Shown one piece after another: positions 38,605 through 48,105 of a DNA stretch of 64,000 nt. The stretch is from Malassezia furfur. Taxonomy: Eukaryota. Both the position numbers and the translations under genes were made by a program. Numbering within the stretch: the stretch's first letter is position 1; every line of letters starts with the position of its first letter. Where the stretch lies: the NCBI GenBank assembly GCA_052055015.1, contig JBQJIT010000020.1. One strand, given 5' to 3'. The notes below the pieces were generated by a model, which had not been told where the DNA came from, searched no databases, and saw nothing but the letters and a program-made list of their open reading frames with translations.

Positions 38605-40166
38605 ATGCGCGTACGTCATGGTGCACTGACCTAGATCGCGGTGGAAGGATGCTCGCACGGCGAGCTGGATACCATCTATGACCAGATTCTCACTAAAGAG
38701 AAAGAGACGTCCCAGCGCGTAGACCTCTTGTTGCTTTGCGGCGACGTGCAAGCCGCACGCAACGACGCTGACCTGCATAGCCTGGCGGTGCCCGTGAAGT
38801 ACCGTCGCCTCGGCGACTTTCATCGCTACTATGCAGGGGAGCGCATGGCACCTATTCTGACCATCGTTATCGGTGGCAACCACGAGGCCAGCAACTATTT
38901 ATGGGAGTTATACTTTGGTGGTTGGCTCGCACCAAACATATACCACCTCGGTGCCGCAGGATGTGTGGGTATTGGCGACCTCGTCATTGCAGGCGCATCG
39001 GGCATCTACAAGGTAAACGACTATGCCAAGGGACACTATGAGCGCCAACCGTACTCACCCGGAGACTTGCGCAGCATCTACCACACGCGCCAATTTGAGA
39101 TCAGCAAGCTGCGGTTTCTGCATCGTCCCGACATCTTTTTGTCGCATGACTGGCCCAACACCATTGAACAGTACGGCGAAGTGCACGACTTGATTCGGAG
39201 AAAGCCCTTCTTCCGGCAGGAGATTCAAACCTCCTCGCTCGGGTCTCCGCCGTTGCAGTCCCTGCTCATGACGCTGCATCCACGTTATTGGTTTTCGGCC
39301 CACCTCCATGTGAGGTATGCGGCCAAAGTTCTCTTTAATGGACCTTTGCCCACCAAGGTCCCGACGGAATCCTATCTCCCCCCGGTGGCCCAGCAAGCTG
39401 TGGCCGACGAGCCCAATCCCGAGGCCCTCGTAATTGACGACGACTTTGATGACGCCGCCCCGAACGATGTAAGGCAAAAAGATTTGTCGTCTACGGCAGC
39501 CGAGGCGGACGTCACCGAATTCTTGGCCCTGAGCAAGTGCTCCTCAAGACTTGATTATCTCGAGTTCATCGACGTGACGACATCGCACGACACAGAACTC
39601 GCCGCTATCCCCGCAAACGAACGCCCTAAGCTCCCTTTGGAATTTGATTCGCGCTGGCTCGCCATTACCAAAGTGCTTCAACCCTATTTTTCCCTCCAGC
39701 GATACCAAAAGCGCCTCCCGGATTTCCAGGACTCCTCAGTGCGCGAACAAATCAATCAGGAGCAACAAACGTTTGACAAGCTGGCTCAGGAAGATATGCA
39801 TGCTCTCTCTATTTGGCGCGTGCAACAGTTCGCTCGTACCGCGCCGACACAAACCGAGCAGGGCGACGCCCGCCTTCCTTGTACGTTGCTTTTCGCTTAC
39901 ACGCAGCCTCTGTTTTTTCTAATCCTCAGACACAGGCATTTTGTGCGTTGGTCCAGATACCCAACCCTATCAACTCCCATTTCCATGATGCAAGTACCAG
40001 CGGCGAACGCCACCGCGGTACGACTGGGGTCCGTGTACCTGAGCACCCTGCTGAGGTCCCTGACGCCGATGCATGCCAAGACGAGCTCGCCCGAATTCAA
40101 GCCATTGCACAAGATCGGAAACGCAAGCGCTATGCAGCAGATCCTGCGCATCATGCATCGTCCTAG
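38605..40166 (+). CDS. DBR1: RNA lariat debranching enzyme
   Basis: MR|IAVEGCSHGELD (24-nt intron 38611-38634), CGDVQ, GGNHE, SHDWP, WFSAHLH, FLALSKC. Intron 39881-39906 shifts into NPQTQAFCALV. Confidence 0.92.
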
Positions 40167-40392
40167 CGAACACATCGCAGATGCCATTGGCTCTTTATGG
40201 CCGAATGCAATTGAAAATATGTCAGCATAGGTATGATCTGCATAATGGCAGTGCAAAGTATTGGATTTCCCTCCCCACTAATGCGGGCCCTGACAAATAT
40301 CGCACGTGTACAACACTGACTGGCCTAGGTTAAGAATTGTGATCGACAATAAAATACCTAGTGTAGTTGACATTTCTTGGCCCCCCACCAAG

Positions 40393-41805
40393 ATGTCAGC
40401 TGCCGCCGAGATGCACCAAACCGAGGCACGGAAGCGTGTGGTTCGACCTGAATCGGACCCCAAGGTCGGTGCTCAAGACGAAGTACCTCGCTATTCGTCC
40501 CGCCAGGAGCAAGTGGCGGACTCAAAGGAGCTCTTCCAGTACAAGGTGCCCGACTTGACGGTGCGCGACCTCCTCTCGGCGATCCCTAAGCACTGTTTTG
40601 AGCGGTCTACGTTCCGTTCGAGCCTCTACCTGCTTGGTGATGTGGTTCAAATTGCCATGCTTGCGTATGCCGCCTCTTGGATCGACACTCTCTCCACCTA
40701 CGCACAGTTTTCGACGTCGTTTGCATCAGAGGAGACGATCCAGCGGTCCATTCGTTGGGTCCTTTGGGGCCTCTACGGTTTTTACCAAGGTCTCGTTTTT
40801 ACCGGCGTCTGGGTCATTGCCCATGAATGCGGCCACCAGGCGTACAGCCCTAGCAAGACGATCAACAATGCGGTTGGCTGGGTGCTACACTCGGCTCTCC
40901 TTGTCCCCTACCACTCATGGCGCATTTCGCACGCGCGCCACCATGCGGGTACGGGGCACATGACGCGTGACGAGGTCTTTGTTCCCCATACTCGCGAAGA
41001 CCGTGGCATGCTTCCGTTGCGTCCGGCCGGCAATGATGCGCCTTCGCAAGAGACGTTTGGCGAGTGGCTCGCTGAAACGCTCGAGGATGTGCCTCTGTAC
41101 AACTTTGTTGAGCTGGTAATTCAGCAGCTCCTTGGATGGCCTCTTTATCTTCTCTTCGATGTGTCTAGCCAGATGCACCACCCGAAGTGGACGAACCGTA
41201 TGTGATGACGACTGACCTTAGACTTCTCTCCCAACTCGGTCATCTTTGACAAGCGCCATCGCAACCAAATCCTCATGTCGGATGTTGGTATTGCCCTTAT
41301 GTTGGGTGCACTGTTTGCTTGGGGGCATTTCTCGTCTGGTGGCTGGAAAGAGGTGGCTCAGTATTACCTCGTTCCTTACCTTTGGACAAACAACTGGCTA
41401 GTGATGATCACCTACCTGCAGCACACGGACCCTCTTCTTCCTCACTACGATGCTTCTACGTGGAACTTTGCCCGTGGCGCTCTCTGCACCATGGATCGCA
41501 ACTGGCTGGGTCCGGTCGGTCCTTATCTTCTCCACGGCATCAGCGAAACCCATGTCCTGCACCACGTGTGCAGCAAGATTCCTCATTATCATGCCTGGGA
41601 GGCCTCTGAGGCACTGCAAAAACGGATTGGTGTCCACTATATGAAGTCGGATGAAAACGTGCTTGTCTCCTTGTGGAAGACGATTCGCGGCTGCCGTTTT
41701 GTGAAGAACGAACCGGTGGCTTTCTACCACAATGCCAATGGCGTCCCGAAGAGCGTTGCTGTCTTCCCTCAGGTCGACGACTCTGGGGTTGCATTCTCGA
41801 GCTAG
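40393..41805 (+). CDS. FAD2: Delta-12 (oleate) fatty acid desaturase
   Basis: AIPKHCFERS, histidine boxes HECGH, HARHH and HVLHH, ITYLQHTDP. Intron 41198-41221. Confidence 0.92.
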
Positions 41806-41995
41806 GAAAGAGGGACGGCTTCTCTGTCTGAAATTTTATTTTCTCTCAGCTACTGCTGCCTCTCTTTGTACATAGCACCATTTGACGCTTGTTGACTACA
41901 TGCACCCCGAGTTAGCACGACTTTCAACTGTCGTGGAGAATAAGTTTGTTTAGTAAAAAACCTTGCGACCAACACCCCCACCTACTTTCGACAAA

Positions 41996-42477
41996 ATGGG
42001 TTTGGAGCCAAGCACAAAGCCAACGGAGTAGGTGAACGCCGCTCACATACAGGCCTCCCAAAGACGATCCGTTTACTGTCGAAGAGCTCGCAAAATACGA
42101 TGGGTCAGACCCGTCGAAGCCAGTTTATGTTGCGGTGAAAGGTGCGTTAAACCGACTACACACTGACCTCAGGTACCATTTTCGATGTTTCACCACGGCG
42201 CGAGATGTATGGTAGGTGATACTTTCAGGAGATTTGACCTTGCAGCCCCAGGAAATGGATACCACGTTTTTGCCGGAAAGGACGCATCTCGTGGCTTGGG
42301 CATGTCCAGCTTGAAACCCGAAGACGCCGTGTCCGACTATTCCACGCTTACTGAAGCACAGATGAAGGTGCTCAACGACTGGGTGCGTCGAGCTGTTGCA
42401 TGTGGGGGTGCTAACCCAAATTACAGTTTGAATACTATAAGAAGCGATATAACATCGTCGGCAAGGTTGTTTCGTAG
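41996..42477 (+). CDS. Cytochrome b5-like heme/steroid-binding protein (MAPR/Dap1 family)
   Basis: Four introns give FTVEELAKYDG...VYVAVKGTIFDVS...MYAPGNGYHVFAGKDASRGLG...LNDWFEYYKKRYNIVGKV. Confidence 0.85.
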
Positions 42478-42478
42478 T

Positions 42479-43016
42479 TCAAGTAACATTTGCAATGTCT
42501 TGTAGGGCGTCGGGTGGGATCTGACCTTGCTTCCGCCTGGGTCAGTAGCATGCTGCGTACGTTAATGCCCCTTTAAAGATAAAAGTATACTTTCCACCGC
42601 TTTTGATCGGTGGTGGCGTATGCTCATAGCCAATTGGTAAACCACATCGTGTACAAAGAAAGTCGTACTGCTGCTCGAGCCGCCCGTCATCACTGTTGGT
42701 CAGCTTGGGGAAACATACCGTCTGACCATCTGGCCTTCTCCTTGTGATGCACTGATTTTGTACACATGAGCACGGAGTAACTGTCCGTCTGGCTTTTCGG
42801 CGTCCATGCACCGCAATACGCGTGACTTGTCGAAGGGACGTTCTGGGAGAAGTTCTAGGGCCTTGTTGCAAACCAAAACAAATTCGCCGCATAAACAGTA
42901 GTATACAAGTAAATCGTTTTGTGATCGGTCATCCACGGCATTGCTCTTGTGTGCCCTAACGAGTGTCAGTATACGGAGAACGTGCAGTCAACGTACATGG
43001 GACTATGACGTGACAT
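42479..43016 (-). CDS. STEEP1/CXorf56 (UPF0428)-like Zn-binding protein
   Basis: LLVYYCLCGEFVLV...LPERPFDKSRVL...EQQYDFLCTRCGLPIGY...YTFIFKGALT, assembled through three introns. Confidence 0.75.
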
Positions 43017-43110
43017 GATCGTCCTTGTCCGGGGAAATTGCGACACGACAGTAAAACTTGTGTTACTAATTACATAAATTTCTCACCATCCCCACGGTGG
43101 TCTACACGTC

Positions 43111-44613
43111 ATGGGTGCAGAAATCTCGAAGCTACGCGGCCAAGGCAAAACGCAGCATCAAGAACAGCTACCATTCCAAGCAACAGGGGAAGAAAGAAAG
43201 ACTGTTCCTTCGGATACCTTGGAAGAAGTTGCAAACTCTGTGTCAGCAGAAGAGAAAATCGCCTCGCAGAACGCAGAGGAATCTTCCGATACCCAGGTTG
43301 CCCCTACGGAGGAGTCAAAACTGCTTGTTTCAGAAAACACTGTGCCGGAAAGTACACAAGTCAAGGAAGAAGCTACCGGTCCTGACGACTCCCTAGCTAG
43401 TTTTCGCGAACGAGTCCAGCGTCTACGGGCAGAAGGTTCGTATTCAGAGCAGGATGACCAAATTCGTACTGAACTGGCATCCTCAGGGCTCCTTGATCCT
43501 GTCGAGGCCACCGTAAGTCAAAGTGATACAGACTCGTTGAGCGATTCAGAAAGCGAATCTTCAAGTGATAATTCCAACGACGAGTCTGGAGACGAACCCG
43601 TTAACGAACCTGATACGGTGGATGACCAAAAGGGAAGCGAAACACCCCCAAAGACAAAACACGAAATTCTGGACGAAGAGGTCCCCTTGCCTCCGGTATC
43701 CCAGCTGGATCCTACAGATTTGCCGTTGCTCCATCACATTGGCCAAATTCATTCCATCGTGGACAATGTCGTTTTGATTGCACAAACGGAAGAGCCTACT
43801 GAGGATCTATCACAACGCGCCTTTGACGTTCTTGACTCTGGAAGTTTATTGTCCATGAAAGACGGACGCGTAATCGGTTTGGTTTACGAAACGTTTGGGT
43901 CGGTCAAGGCGCCCTTTTATTCCGTGCGCTTCCCTTCGGAGGACTCTATCGACAGGGACATCATCAACCCCGGTGTTCCTGTTTACTATCTTCCTACAAG
44001 CAGTACCTACGTTCTCGCACGTACGATTCGAACCAAAGGAAGTGATGCAAGCAACATTTGGGATGAAGAAGTTGGCGAAGATGAGGCGGAATACAGTGAT
44101 GACGAAGGGGAAGCAACTGCCAAGCGTCGCGCAAAGCAAGAGCGTCGGATGAAAGGTGAAAATGCAACCCCTTCTTCTCCTCCGTCAGAGGTTGATCCAA
44201 TGGAGGCATCGCTTGGTCCACTTGGAGGTTATCCAGCAGGTGGGTCCTCCAACACGCGTGGGCGGAAGCGAAAGGACAAGAGCCGGCGAGGACGCGGGGG
44301 CTTCCAAGGAGAAACAAAGCGTGGTCGACCCCAATTTTATGGAAATTATCCAGCTGCTCCTCATATCAACCCAAGGTTTGCTGGACAATGGATGCAGGCT
44401 CCCCCCTACGGCATGCCTCCGGTGATGCCGCCATTCCCGCCGGGGTTCGCCATGCCAAACGTGGACTCCTACCGCCCAGAGGGATATGAAGCCTACTCTC
44501 CCCATCATGCGCGCATCGACTCGTCTCGGCAAAGCACCTATGACCCAAATGCGCCCAGTCTGTCACCTCGAGTGGAATCTCACACTCCGGACCGCTATAC
44601 CCCGTCATCGTAG
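43111..44613 (+). CDS. NAF1: H/ACA snoRNP assembly factor Naf1
   Basis: Gar1/Naf1 domain (IGQIHSIVD, DSGSLL, VYETFGSVKAPFYSVRF) followed by KGSDASNIWDEEV...EYSDDE. Confidence 0.88.
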   Translation: MGAEISKLRGQGKTQHQEQLPFQATGEERKTVPSDTLEEVANSVSAEEKIASQNAEESSDTQVAPTEESKLLVSENTVPESTQVKEEATGPDDSLASFRERVQRLRAEGSYSEQDDQIRTELASSGLLDPVEATVSQSDTDSLSDSESESSSDNSNDESGDEPVNEPDTVDDQKGSETPPKTKHEILDEEVPLPPVSQLDPTDLPLLHHIGQIHSIVDNVVLIAQTEEPTEDLSQRAFDVLDSGSLLSMKDGRVIGLVYETFGSVKAPFYSVRFPSEDSIDRDIINPGVPVYYLPTSSTYVLARTIRTKGSDASNIWDEEVGEDEAEYSDDEGEATAKRRAKQERRMKGENATPSSPPSEVDPMEASLGPLGGYPAGGSSNTRGRKRKDKSRRGRGGFQGETKRGRPQFYGNYPAAPHINPRFAGQWMQAPPYGMPPVMPPFPPGFAMPNVDSYRPEGYEAYSPHHARIDSSRQSTYDPNAPSLSPRVESHTPDRYTPSS

Positions 44614-44669
44614 CTTTCCCATCATTTACTGGGTATCATGTGCCACTATACTACTTATATATATGGCTG

Positions 44670-46271
44670 CTACACTTTTGAAAAAGATGCGCTGTTGTCC
44701 AAGTAAGGATACAGGTCTGTAGTCAAGTGTTCACTTGGTTTCTTTGCACGGATCTGATGCGAAAGGTAACGGCAGCACAAGCTCAACGCTTTGGGGTCAA
44801 GCTCACTCAGCTTTTTTGCCTCTTCAGCAATAAGCTCGTCAATGTATTCTGGTGTGATTTTTCTGCCTTCGTCAGAGTGTGCGCCATGATACACCCATTG
44901 CCAGAGTGAGATGCGGGAAATCTCCGCGGTCGCTGCTTCCGCGACTATAAAATTGATAGGCACACAGGCTTTACCTCGCAGCCAATTTGCACAGTACACG
45001 AGTACGGTTTCGATGTTGATCCGCGCCCCTTTCTCGGTAATCTTCCCAGGGAAATTGGTGTTAAGCAGGTCCTGAGCCACAACATGCACGTCTTCACGGC
45101 GCACGTAATACTGGTTTGCACCTGGCATTTGCTTGTTGAAGATTTCAATTGCCATGGGAACAAATGCAGGGTCAGACACACAGCCACCGTCGTGTCCCGC
45201 CTGGGCTTCACGGAGTTTATCAGCAGCAACTTTCTTCCTGGCGGCCTCATTTGCGACCTTGTCATGTTCAATAGGGATCTGGGCAGCCATCCCACCAATG
45301 GCAGCGACGCCTCTCTTATGGCAGACTTGTATAAGAAGTTCCACATAGGCCTTCATAAAAGGCACAGTCATGGTGACATCGTCACGATCCGGTAGCACAA
45401 CACCTTTGTTGTATCGCTGACGCTTGATGAACGAGAAGATGTAGTCCCAGCGACCACAGTTGAGACCAGACGAGTGCTCGCGCAGCTCGTAAATGATCTC
45501 CTCCATTTCAAATGTGGCTGTAATAGTCTCGATCAGCACGGTGCCACGGATTGTTCCGCGTGGCATATCGACGTAGTCCTGCGCGAAGTTGAAAATGTCG
45601 TTCCACAAACGTGCCTCGAGGTGGGATTCAAGTTTGGGGAGGTAGAAATAAGGACCGATACCGTTCTGGACGAGCTGCTTGGCATTGTGGAAAAAGTAGA
45701 GACCAAAGTCAAACAGGCCACCAGCAATGGGCTTTGCATCCACTAGGAAAAACTCCTCATTCAGGTGCCAGCTGCGTGGTCGGACAATCGGTGTTGCTAG
45801 TTCTTCGTTGGGCCTCAGTTTCCAATCCGCTCCGTTCTCATCCTTGTAGTCCAAGGTGCGATGAATTGCTGCCTTCATATTCACCTGTCCATCTAGGCTG
45901 TTTGCCCACGTAGGTGTAGTTTGGTCTTCAAAATCGGCCATGTACGCGTACGCGCCAGAGTTCAACAACTTCATGACTGTGTGTCGGTCCACAGGGCCGG
46001 AGGTCTCGACGCGCCGGTTACAGAGTCCTGGAGCTGGTGGTGCGCCCATCCACGTTGGATCTTCACGGATATGAGCGGTTTGAGGCAAGAAGTCGAGCCG
46101 ACAACCAGCGTCCAACTCAACCTGACGCGCTGCACGGGCTTGAAGACGCTCCTGGCGTTTTTCTTCAAAGACGCGGTGCAAGGCTGCTAAAAATGCAATG
46201 GCCTCTGGAGACAAGATGTTCACATGTTCCCCAACAATAGGGGCAAGAATGCGAACTCCCTCGACGGACAT
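44670..46271 (-). CDS. Malate synthase paralog with altered active-site motifs
   Basis: 533 aa, colinear with the adjacent MLS1, intact frame, ends SKV. Several catalytic motifs are changed (see findings). Confidence 0.88.
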   Translation of the reverse strand: MSVEGVRILAPIVGEHVNILSPEAIAFLAALHRVFEEKRQERLQARAARQVELDAGCRLDFLPQTAHIREDPTWMGAPPAPGLCNRRVETSGPVDRHTVMKLLNSGAYAYMADFEDQTTPTWANSLDGQVNMKAAIHRTLDYKDENGADWKLRPNEELATPIVRPRSWHLNEEFFLVDAKPIAGGLFDFGLYFFHNAKQLVQNGIGPYFYLPKLESHLEARLWNDIFNFAQDYVDMPRGTIRGTVLIETITATFEMEEIIYELREHSSGLNCGRWDYIFSFIKRQRYNKGVVLPDRDDVTMTVPFMKAYVELLIQVCHKRGVAAIGGMAAQIPIEHDKVANEAARKKVAADKLREAQAGHDGGCVSDPAFVPMAIEIFNKQMPGANQYYVRREDVHVVAQDLLNTNFPGKITEKGARINIETVLVYCANWLRGKACVPINFIVAEAATAEISRISLWQWVYHGAHSDEGRKITPEYIDELIAEEAKKLSELDPKALSLCCRYLSHQIRAKKPSEHLTTDLYPYLDNSASFSKV

Positions 46272-46503
46272 TCTGTCGAATTTCGTGAATGAAAGTGACT
46301 AGGATGACGGGCTAGCCTAATTCAGATAAGATTCGCGAGGGTCCGATAAACTCCACAAAAGCGACGCCCTTGATAAGATTAAATGCTGACAGGAACTGCA
46401 CGCAGAGAGTGCCAGGCGCGGAGGCGACGAATATGTGATGACGTACACACCGAGATAGGATGACGCCGTGTGCTTTCGCTAAGCATATCTACCATATGTT
46501 TTA

Positions 46504-47788
46504 TTAGATCTTCGAAAGGCTGGCACTGTTGTCGAGGTGCGCCGTCAGATCCGTGGTCAAGAACTCGCTCGGCTTCTTCGCGCGCACCTGCTGCGAGAGG
46601 TAGCGACGCGACAGGTCCACCGCCTTGGGGTCGAGCTTCGTGAGCTTCTTTGCCTCGTCGGCCAGGAGCTCGTCAATGTACTGCGGCGTAATCTTCTTGC
46701 CGTCGACGGTGCTCGCGCCGTGGAAGACCCACTGCCAGAGCGAAATACGCGAAATCTCGGCCGTCGCAGCGTCCTCCATCAGGAAGTTGATCGGCACACA
46801 GCCGAGACCGTGCACCCAGTTGGCGCAGTAGGCAAGCAACGCCGAGACGTTGGCGCGCGCGCCCTTCTCGGTAATCTTACCGGTGACGTTGGGGTTGAGC
46901 AGGTCGAGCGCGGTGACGTTGACCTCCTCGCGGCGCACGTAGTACTGGTTGGGACCAATCATGTACTTGTCAAAGATTTCCAGGGCAATCTTGACCAGCG
47001 CGGGGTGCGCCACCCAGGTGCCGTCGTGGCCGGCCTTAACCTCGCGCAGCTTGTCGGCGCGCACCTTCTCCATGGCGGCGTCGTTGGCCTTGGGGTCGTC
47101 CTTGATCGGGATCTGCGCGGCCATACCACCAATCGCAGCGACACCACGCTTGTGGCAGGTCTGGATCAGCAGGTTCACGTAGGCCTGCATGAAGGGTGCC
47201 GTCATGGTGACGTCACCACGGTCCGGCAGCACGGCGCTCTGGTTGTAGCGCTGGCGCTTGATGAACGAGAAGATGTAGTCCCAGCGACCACAGTTGAGAC
47301 CAGACGAGTGCTCGCGCAGCTCGTAAATGATCTCCTCCATTTCAAAGGCGGCCGTGATGGTCTCAATCAGCACGGTGCCACGGATCGTGCCGCGGGGCAT
47401 GCCGATGTAGTCCTGCGCAAAGTTGAACACGTCGTTCCACAGGCGCGCCTCGAGGTGCGACTCCATCTTGGGAAGGTAGAAGTAGGGGCCGTAGCCGTTC
47501 TTGACGAGCTGCTCGGCGTTGTGGAAGAAGTACAGACCAAAGTCAAACAGACCACCCGAGATCGGCTTGCCGTCCACGAGGAAGAACTCCTCGTTGAGGT
47601 GCCACCCACGGGGACGCACAATCAGGGTGGCAAGCTGGTCCGCGGGCTTCAGCTTGTACTCCTTGCCGTTCGACTGCTTAAAGTCAACGCGGCGGTTGAT
47701 GGCGGCGTTCAGGTTAACCTGGCCGTCGAGGTTGTTCGCCCAGGTCGGGGAGTTCGAATCCTCAAAGTCAGCCATGTACGTGTAGGCA

Positions 47789-47820
<32 letters not shown>

Positions 47821-48105
47821 GTCGACCGGGCCGGTGATCTCGACACGGCGGTCGCGCAGACCCGGCGCAGGCTTAGCACCCATCCAGGTGGGGTCCTCAC
47901 GGATGTGGGCCGTCTGCGGCAGGAAGTCGAGCTGCTTGCCAGCGTCCAGCTCAACCTGGCGCGCCTCACGGGCACGCAGTCGCTCCTGGCGCGTGCTCTC
48001 GAAGATACGGTGCAGCGTCGCCACGAACTTGATCGCCTCGGGGGTGAGGATCTTGGCGTGCTCGCCGAGCACAGGGGCAAGGATACGAACACCTTCAACC
48101 GACAT
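46504..48105 (-). CDS. MLS1: Malate synthase (glyoxylate cycle), canonical copy
   Basis: [51 protein letters not shown]-terminal SKI (PTS1-like). Confidence 0.96.

Follow-up and report, generated by a model that had tools for sequence, protein, structure and literature searches.

A tandem malate synthase paralogue with a re-tooled active site in Malassezia furfur

The 64,000-nucleotide stretch of the Malassezia furfur genome analyzed here (GenBank assembly GCA_052055015.1, contig JBQJIT010000020.1; hereafter, the window) contains two malate synthase genes arranged head-to-tail, a canonical, MLS1-type copy, denoted B, and, downstream of it, a paralogue with a re-tooled active site, denoted A (Table 1). 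Malate synthase, a drug target in fungi and mycobacteria, is regarded as an enzyme with one reaction and a fixed set of catalytic residues. An initial reading of the window, made from the sequence alone (hereafter, the sequence-only reading), described A as an intact copy of the same length as the MLS1-type gene, with no indels or stops, and this is indeed the case: each gene consists of exactly 533 codons, and the BLASTP alignment of the two proteins includes 402 identical residues of 533 (75%) and 0 gaps, the coding DNA being 72% identical. Both proteins match the Pfam families PF20656, PF01274 and PF20659 far above the cut-off (60.2, 345.4 and 95.2 bits, respectively, for A), with the TIM-barrel domain scoring 345 bits in A vs 392 bits in B, and a phmmer comparison of A with 3CUX yields 9e-166. 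The best database matches of A are Malassezia malate synthases, and B belongs to a 90% cluster together with the named malate synthases of M. furfur, M. obtusa, M. brasiliensis, M. psittaci and M. yamatoensis. No third malate synthase copy was detected within the window by tblastn. Judging from its strong codon bias (GC content at third codon positions, GC3, of 0.85) and its fully canonical pocket, B is the likely glyoxylate-cycle enzyme.

The functional roles of the residues that line the malate synthase pocket are known from published structures, and these served as the basis for the comparison of A with B. As described in the structural work cited here (PMC3112382), the catalytic general base is ecMSG Asp631, in agreement with the role that the sequence-only reading assigned to the base Asp; ecMSG Trp534 and its counterpart, hvMSH Trp257, are located 3.7-4.0 Å from the aldehyde carbon of glyoxylate; and the adenine and pantothenate pocket of Escherichia coli malate synthase A (ecMSA) is formed by Ile94, Thr95, Met102 and Pro369, with Met330 touching the cysteamine part of coenzyme A (CoA). 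The methyl group of pyruvate clashes with Trp534/Trp257, which is regarded as the obstacle to pyruvate condensation (PMC3112382; PMC3832036). According to the second of these accounts, propionyl-CoA is blocked by ecMSA Trp277, and the Mg waters are held by a Glu-Asp pair together with an Arg network (PMC3832036). For the Mycobacterium tuberculosis (Mtb) enzyme, Met631 and Met515 are described as the pantothenate pocket, and Glu632 and Thr636 as residues that stabilize the CoA loop (PMC5207166).

Using hidden Markov model (HMM) alignments, we mapped these literature contact residues to positions 90, 91, 98, 368, 328, 275, 364, 443, 444, 445 and 448 of the window proteins, with ecMSA Ile94, Thr95 and Met102 corresponding to positions 90, 91 and 98. 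A second anchor for the equivalence of the Trp residues is the adenine-stacking Pro, which follows the Trp at a distance of four residues in all three isoforms (Pro538, Pro369 and Pro261). Canonical malate synthases were represented by 124 fungal sequences, comprising the best matches longer than 500 aa and named members of the clusters, after exclusion of duplicates and of six paralogues of the A kind; the 203 sites conserved in at least 99% of these sequences were considered canonical-invariant.

In A, the position of the catalytic-base Asp (ecMSG Asp631, or 447 of ecMSA by the numbering offset) is occupied by Glu445, and that of the glyoxylate-packing Trp (ecMSG Trp534) by Cys364, which follows Gly363. 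The codons of Glu445 in A (44937-44939) and of Asp445 in B (46771-46773) are located exactly where the sequence-only reading had placed them. In the CoA adenine/pantothenate pocket, 5 of the 7 residues are altered (Thr90, Ser91, Thr98, Val443 and Ala444), and Pro368 and Met328 are kept. The motif changes that were originally listed, including HDGGCVSDP, DFEDQTTP, HTVMKLLN and the altered LMED, EITGP and VRPRG, are all present in the alignment of A and B, and A also retains Glu248 of the LIET motif, Asp276 of the GRWD motif, Arg164, Arg166 and the C-terminal SKV, which resembles a type 1 peroxisomal targeting signal (PTS1) and may act as one. By this mapping, the substitutions fall in the CoA pocket, in the wall beside the aldehyde carbon of glyoxylate and in the catalytic loop.

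The replaced motifs had been regarded as near-invariant, which holds fully for the 124 canonical fungal sequences but more weakly in the wider family (see below). Among the canonical sequences, Thr91, Met98, Gly167, Trp364, His367, Met443 and Asp445 are each 100% conserved, and position 363 is Thr in 98%. Furthermore, the substitutions are concentrated in the pocket beyond chance, as originally suspected. With literature contact lists as the basis, 17 of the 203 invariant positions are documented ligand contacts, and A differs from B at 7 of these, compared to 19 of the 186 other invariant positions (Fisher p=0.002).

The part of the active site that did not change is equally well defined. A is identical to the canonical enzymes at Asp113, Glu115, Asp116, Arg166, Glu248, Arg274, Trp275, Asp276, Met328, Pro368, Cys436 and Thr448; among these, the Mg2+ ligands Glu248 and Asp276, the Glu115-Asp116 pair of the DFED motif, and Arg166 are invariant in two alignments. 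The AlphaFold2 (AF2) model of A (pLDDT 90.4, pTM 0.91) superposes on ecMSA (3CUZ/3CV2) at a TM score of 0.94. Taken together, these comparisons show that the metal, acid and Arg core as well as the acyl-side gate are preserved in A, and that the rebuilt parts are the base, the wall on the oxo-acid side and the cradle for CoA. Because Trp275, the equivalent of ecMSA Trp277 that limits the size of the acyl-CoA, is kept, it is the oxo-acid side, not the acyl side, that appears to have been opened. Thus, the notion of an altered acyl-CoA/2-oxoacid pocket stands for the CoA pocket and for the oxo-acid side but does not extend to the gate that controls acyl size.

Table 1. Features of the malate synthase gene pair and of the active site of A (window coordinates)
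Feature	Position	Strand	Comment
Paralogue A	44670..46271	-	Intact 533-aa open reading frame of the malate synthase A fold, ATG to stop, re-tooled active site, C-terminal SKV
Copy B, canonical malate synthase (MLS1-type)	46504..48105	-	533-aa open reading frame, C-terminal SKI
Spacer between A and B	46272..46503	-	232 bp, GC 0.478
Val443-Ala444-Glu445 replacing Met-Glu-Asp	44937..44945	-	Catalytic base and CoA-binding loop
Gly363-Cys364-Val-Ser366-Asp367-Pro368-Ala-Phe370 replacing Thr-Trp-Val-Ala-His-Pro-Ala-Leu	45162..45185	-	Adenine-stacking Pro retained
Thr90-Ser91 ... His97-Thr98 ... Lys101-Leu102 replacing Ile-Thr ... Lys-Met ... Asn-Ala	45966..46004	-	CoA adenine and pantothenate pocket
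Arg164-Pro-Arg166-Ser167	45771..45782	-	Both Arg retained, Gly167 replaced by Ser
Retained core: Glu248 (45528-45530) and Arg274-Trp275-Asp276 (45444-45452)	45444..45530	-	Mg2+ ligands and lid, including the propionyl-CoA-blocking Trp
C-terminal Ser-Lys-Val, PTS1-like	44673..44681	-	Tripeptide pattern

This combination of changed and unchanged residues bears on two simple explanations of the paralogue. First, A could still be a regular isozyme of malate synthase that differs modestly in its kinetics and is kept for another regulatory context, as is reportedly the case for DAL7, the second malate synthase gene of baker's yeast. The replacement of Asp by Glu retains the carboxylate, the Mg site, the Arg residues, the lid Trp275, Met328 and the PTS1-like end are all kept, and the modeled fold appears unchanged, all of which would be expected of an isozyme. 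However, Asp445, Trp364, Met443 and Met98 are invariant in the 124 canonical fungal sequences, including those from species with a single gene, and it would be surprising for an isozyme to have 7 of the 17 documented contact residues changed, to lose the Trp that forms the glyoxylate-specificity wall, and to carry Glu at a position where the only Glu-bearing clade of the superfamily is a thioesterase devoid of lyase activity. We therefore regard the isozyme explanation as improbable.

Similarly improbable, in our assessment, is that A is a non-catalytic pseudoenzyme that binds glyoxylate, another Mg-chelating acid or the canonical enzyme itself, and acts as a regulator or scaffold of peroxisomal metabolism. 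Such a role would fit the alteration of the base and of the CoA pocket alongside a conserved Mg/acid site and fold, as well as the oligomeric state of fungal and plant malate synthases A described in the discussion of the structural work (PMC3112382). The position of the base is nevertheless occupied by a carboxylate in all six paralogues, and by an inert residue in none, and Arg166, Asp113, Glu115 and Asp116, which a mere binder would not need, are all kept.

A has orthologues in other lineages that share its derived residues, namely, in M. furfur CBS14141, M. yamatoensis and M. psittaci. Among the best 120 matches to A, the derived motifs were found in three clusters: the cluster of the window protein itself, with 4 members; a cluster of 19 members around P0002, which includes the M. 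furfur CBS14141 protein with the locus tag 000599, adjoining the canonical 000600; and two 524-aa proteins, P0074 from M. yamatoensis and P0148 from M. psittaci, each three accession numbers away from the canonical gene of its own species. In every listed member of these clusters that covers the respective positions, Glu is present at the base, and Gly-Cys replaces Thr-Trp. Six full-length paralogues, from the window, two M. furfur CBS14141-type haplotype groups, M. yamatoensis and M. psittaci, were compared in full, and Ser91, Thr98, Gly363, Cys364, Val443 and Glu445 are common to all of them. At 15 positions, the six paralogues share one residue that is not the residue of B, and 5 of these positions are documented contacts (binomial p=7.6e-5). 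The 524-aa type taken separately differs at 5 of the 17 contacts and at 13 of the 186 other invariant positions (p=0.01). The C-terminus is SKM in the CBS14141-type orthologues, vs SKV in A and SKI in B. Among the papers listed by a full-text literature search, none on a second, divergent Malassezia malate synthase was found. In public records, proteins of the A type are labeled "malate synthase" or "hypothetical protein", so these annotations may overstate the glyoxylate-cycle capacity.

The number of duplications that gave rise to the paralogues depends on how the active-site positions are treated. In the tree built from the full alignment, the six paralogues form one clade (support 99/99) within the group of M. 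furfur, M. obtusa, M. brasiliensis, M. psittaci and M. yamatoensis, after the divergence of M. japonica; forcing the 524-aa type to the side of the canonical genes of M. psittaci and M. yamatoensis costs 18.1 log-likelihood units (lnL) and is not rejected by the approximately unbiased (AU) test (p=0.089). With the 16 active-site columns removed, the monophyly of the paralogues is lost, the 524-aa type joins the canonical genes of its own species (47/83), and enforcing monophyly costs only 1.2 lnL (AU p=0.45). These results are compatible with three possible origins: a single duplication and an early burst of changes in the pocket, a single duplication followed by later gene conversion, or two duplications, in which case the six replacements would be convergent. 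Each of these scenarios would require selection to maintain the derived pocket. Should the two types of paralogues have arisen independently, the six identical replacements would make a clear case of convergent active-site evolution.

Comparison of A and B shows saturation of synonymous sites (proportion of synonymous differences, pS, 0.709) along with a nonsynonymous distance (dN) of 0.164, which yields a Nei-Gojobori omega of ~0.08, a value that is only a bound given the saturated synonymous distance and the differing composition of the two genes. A copy that was neutral since the duplication would not produce this pattern. More recent changes tell a similar story. Of the 62 differences that separate A of the window from the A-types of CBS14141, 12 affect canonical-invariant sites, where 38% would be expected (p=0.0012); for the paralogues of M. 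yamatoensis and M. psittaci, the count is 2 of 27 (p=0.00036). The M. furfur lineages P1 and P2, the latter being the CBS14141 lineage, are described as 89% similar genome-wide (PMC9040865); combined with the 62 differences in 533 residues, this similarity gives a rough, protein-level estimate of omega of 0.15-0.25, not 1.

Several observations, however, weigh against a functional paralogue, and these are best considered together with the main alternative, namely, that A is a redundant duplicate under relaxed selection in the course of slow drift to a pseudogene, with the active-site changes being the first inactivating hits and the remaining constraint being either residual or directed against misfolding. 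First, the paralogue evolves fast: between the M. furfur lineages, 62 of the 533 residues differ in the paralogue vs 3 of the 533 in the canonical protein (B compared to its CBS14141 counterpart), that is, a ~20-fold faster rate, and between M. yamatoensis and M. psittaci, the paralogues differ at 27 of 524 and the canonical proteins at 7 of 533 positions. The two CBS14141-type haplotype groups differ from each other at 14 positions, 4 of which are invariant sites, with no depletion detected in this small sample (p=0.33). Second, codon bias has been lost (GC3 of 0.56 in A vs 0.85 in B, and vs 0.71-0.94 in most genes of the window). Third, disrupted alleles exist. Of the 15 listed members of the 19-member P0002 cluster, seven are full-length; P0127 and P0133 have a frameshift near codon 355, with the loss of the catalytic C-terminal domain, P0123 and P0132 share an in-frame 3-residue deletion near residue 46, and three members start at the internal Met74 or Met100. 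The frameshift looks real, so that the gene seems to be dispensable in at least some strains or hybrid haplotypes. Along with the fast protein rate, the frameshifted allele shows that constraint on A is much weaker than that on the canonical gene.

The remaining points in favor of slow decay come from the distribution and the divergence of the paralogues. The best 120 matches, drawn from the annotated or predicted proteins of the collection, include canonical proteins of M. obtusa, M. brasiliensis and M. japonica but no paralogue from any of these species. In the 524-aa type, eight residues (positions 143-150 of the window protein) are missing, and the C-terminus is FSS or FSC in place of a PTS1-like tripeptide, so that this type may work outside the peroxisome. 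Moreover, both types of paralogues are altered, but to differing residues, at Lys97, Asn101, Ala102, Gly167, His367, Leu370 and Phe515; in the CoA pocket, His367 is replaced by Asp or Leu, Gly167 by Ser in the A type or Asn in the 524-aa type, and Asn101 by Lys or Glu, a divergence that could reflect release from constraint instead of a new fit.

Against slow decay, the reading frame is open in at least four taxa or lineages, although A and B are saturated at synonymous sites; both groups show fewer recent changes at conserved sites than expected (see above); and the six replacements are identical in all six paralogues, with the Mg ligands, the Arg network and the lid untouched. The low GC3 is regional, given that the neighboring genes between 38.8 and 46.3 kb are in the range of 0.48-0.64, and accordingly shows only that A is devoid of codon bias, that is, it gives no sign of selection for translation. 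The shortened forms that start at internal Met residues near the junction of B and A may be artefacts: one truncated A and one truncated B are both located on 28,730-bp contigs, as could result from errors of assembly or gene calling at the junction of a conserved and a diverged gene. As for the window copy, the marks of a pseudogene, that is, stops, frameshifts and substitutions blind to conservation, are not observed: there is no stop and no gap, and conserved sites are avoided. On balance, we consider slow decay unlikely, and A is probably an enzyme with a changed job, not a dying duplicate. The preference of the sequence-only reading for altered specificity or a non-catalytic role over random decay is supported by the orthologues, the depletion of changes at conserved sites, a dN of 0.16 with saturated synonymous sites, and the mapping of the substitutions to the pocket.

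Two further features of the cluster members were noted. In the cluster of the window protein, 2 of the 4 members start at Met132, and one member of the P0002 cluster ends in what we read, from its last residues, as a translated adapter sequence.

A belongs to a low-GC block (window 38800-46400) that consists of four consecutive genes with GC3 of 0.48-0.64 and spacers with GC of 0.38-0.57, and B lies just outside this block. No sharp AT trough is present in the block; low recombination and low expression are possible causes of its composition. A contribution of repeat-induced point mutation (RIP) to the low GC of A was considered; the substitution counts (C>T 97 and G>A 71 vs T>C 33 and A>G 28) fit decay toward the regional GC3 of ~0.5, and the saturation of the sites prevents the mutation context from being read. 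The neighboring genes (DBR1-like, Naf1-like, SAPS and M16 peptidase) offer no metabolic context. One of these, a Naf1/Gar1-domain gene (PF04410; 43111-44613, + strand), is convergent with A, and because the stop codons of the two genes are 56 bp apart, the 3' ends of their transcripts probably overlap. On the other side, the spacer has to contain the 3' end of B together with the 5' end and, as we infer, the promoter of A. No similarity was detected between the spacer and the region upstream of B, and comparison of the flanks showed that the similarity of A and B stops at the ends of the coding sequences, so that the borders of the duplication cannot be read.

To place these changes in the context of the wider malate synthase family, we examined the best 150 representatives of 50%-identity clusters (P0193-P0342), several of which are poor sequences. 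The base position is occupied by Asp in 101 of the 131 representatives in which it is covered, by Asn in 9, by Gly in 6 and by Glu in 2; the Trp position is occupied by Trp in 87 of 141, by Arg in 23 and by Cys in 5, three of these with Asn at the base; and Arg166 is Arg in 146 of 147. Hence, the near-invariance of the base Asp and of the Trp is a property of the canonical fungal enzymes more than of the family at large. Malate-synthase-like proteins that appear to be re-tooled do not seem to be rare in sequence space, and the representatives with Arg or Cys may be unexplored subfamilies with other activities. One protein, P0309, of the bacterial type, carries Val-Ala-Glu like A but keeps the Trp. 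We considered it as an independent replicate of the base replacement; however, it adds little because it is a singleton, encoded on one 3.8-kb contig, among canonical relatives (Met-Glu-Asp is found in 117, and Thr-Trp in 118, of the 119 relatives nearest to it).

Considering all these observations, the reading that we favor, and to which we assign about even chances, is that A is a retained, constrained paralogue of the peroxisomal malate synthase A in a member of the M. furfur group, which functions as a Mg2+-dependent enzyme acting on CoA thioesters, with a changed reaction or substrate. Under this reading, A would no longer be the malate synthase of the glyoxylate cycle, a role filled by B, but would still bind Mg2+ and the carboxylate of a 2-oxo or 2-hydroxy acid. 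The replacement of Thr-Trp by Gly-Cys is predicted to remove the wall beside the carbonyl carbon of the oxo acid, making room at C2. The lengthened base (Asp445 to Glu), located in the Val-Ala loop, would shift the carboxylate relative to the thioester; in the only known precedent, a Glu base accompanies thioester hydrolysis without carbon-carbon chemistry. A changed affinity for the CoA moiety is suggested by the substitutions in the adenine pocket (Ile90 to Thr, Thr91 to Ser and Met98 to Thr). Two types of activity would be compatible with such a pocket. A might hydrolyze thioesters of the malyl-CoA type, as does the one other clade of the superfamily with Glu at the base, or else, it might be a condensing enzyme or hydrolase that accepts a C2 substituent, with pyruvate, another 2-oxoacid or citramalyl-CoA-like thioesters as candidate substrates.

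A more specific and bolder proposition, which we put forward as doubtful though worth stating, is that, in the M. furfur group, the malate synthase A fold gave rise, perhaps on two occasions and through the same six substitutions, to a new enzyme of the peroxisome, which hydrolyzes or forms C2-substituted malyl-CoA-type thioesters, such as citramalyl-CoA or the compound formed from acetyl-CoA and pyruvate or a different 2-oxoacid. If so, these lipid-dependent skin yeasts would possess a route beside the glyoxylate cycle, for example, and this is speculation, for the disposal of poisonous itaconate- or citramalate-type CoA esters. A would then be a candidate for a new peroxisomal activity in a yeast that subsists on host lipids and is both a commensal of human skin and an opportunist. 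In addition, a paralogue with a swapped general base and a lost glyoxylate-specificity wall amounts to a natural experiment on these residues.

Among the known systems, A is closest to malate synthase A itself (EC 2.3.3.9; E. coli AceB, 3CUZ/3CV2; fungal MLS1), with which it shares the three domains, the fold, the Mg ligands, the Arg, the DFED motif, the lid Arg-Trp and the PTS1-like end. It differs from this enzyme in that the base Asp is replaced by Glu, the glyoxylate Trp by Cys, Met-Glu by Val-Ala, and both the Ile and the Met of the adenine pocket by Thr, all of these residues being invariant in the 124 canonical sequences. A fungal pair of malate synthase A genes is also found in Saccharomyces cerevisiae, where MLS1 and DAL7 are said to be both catalytically canonical and to differ in regulation. 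Unlike that pair, the tandem described here includes a member, A, with a rebuilt active site.

The replacement of the base has a parallel elsewhere in the superfamily. In the account of the CitE/malate synthase superfamily that we drew on, the only clade described as devoid of the catalytic Asp has a conserved Glu instead, and this is the clade of the Rhodobacter sphaeroides malyl-CoA thioesterase (PMC3832036). Like A, the (S)-malyl-CoA thioesterase of the R. sphaeroides Mcl2 type has Glu in place of the catalytic Asp and keeps the Mg ligands and the Arg (PMC3832036). In other respects, the two differ: going by its published description, on which this comparison is based, the Mcl2-type thioesterase is a bacterial, trimeric, CitE-like protein with a short TIM barrel and without the N-terminal and C-terminal domains of malate synthase A, whereas A has both these domains and is nested among the Malassezia malate synthase A sequences, outside the CitE-like clade. 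Because of this nested position, any resemblance between A and the Mcl2-type thioesterase would be convergent.

Haloarchaeal malate synthase H and the malyl-CoA lyases provide the complementary parallel in substrate range, given that they are described as handling C2- and C3-substituted substrates, such as citramalyl-CoA and beta-methylmalyl-CoA (PMC3832036), which indicates that the scaffold can change its substrate through few pocket residues. These enzymes, however, keep both the Asp base and the Trp and owe their wider range to a small residue at the position of ecMSA Trp277, whereas A keeps the corresponding Trp275 and has changed on the opposite, oxo-acid side.

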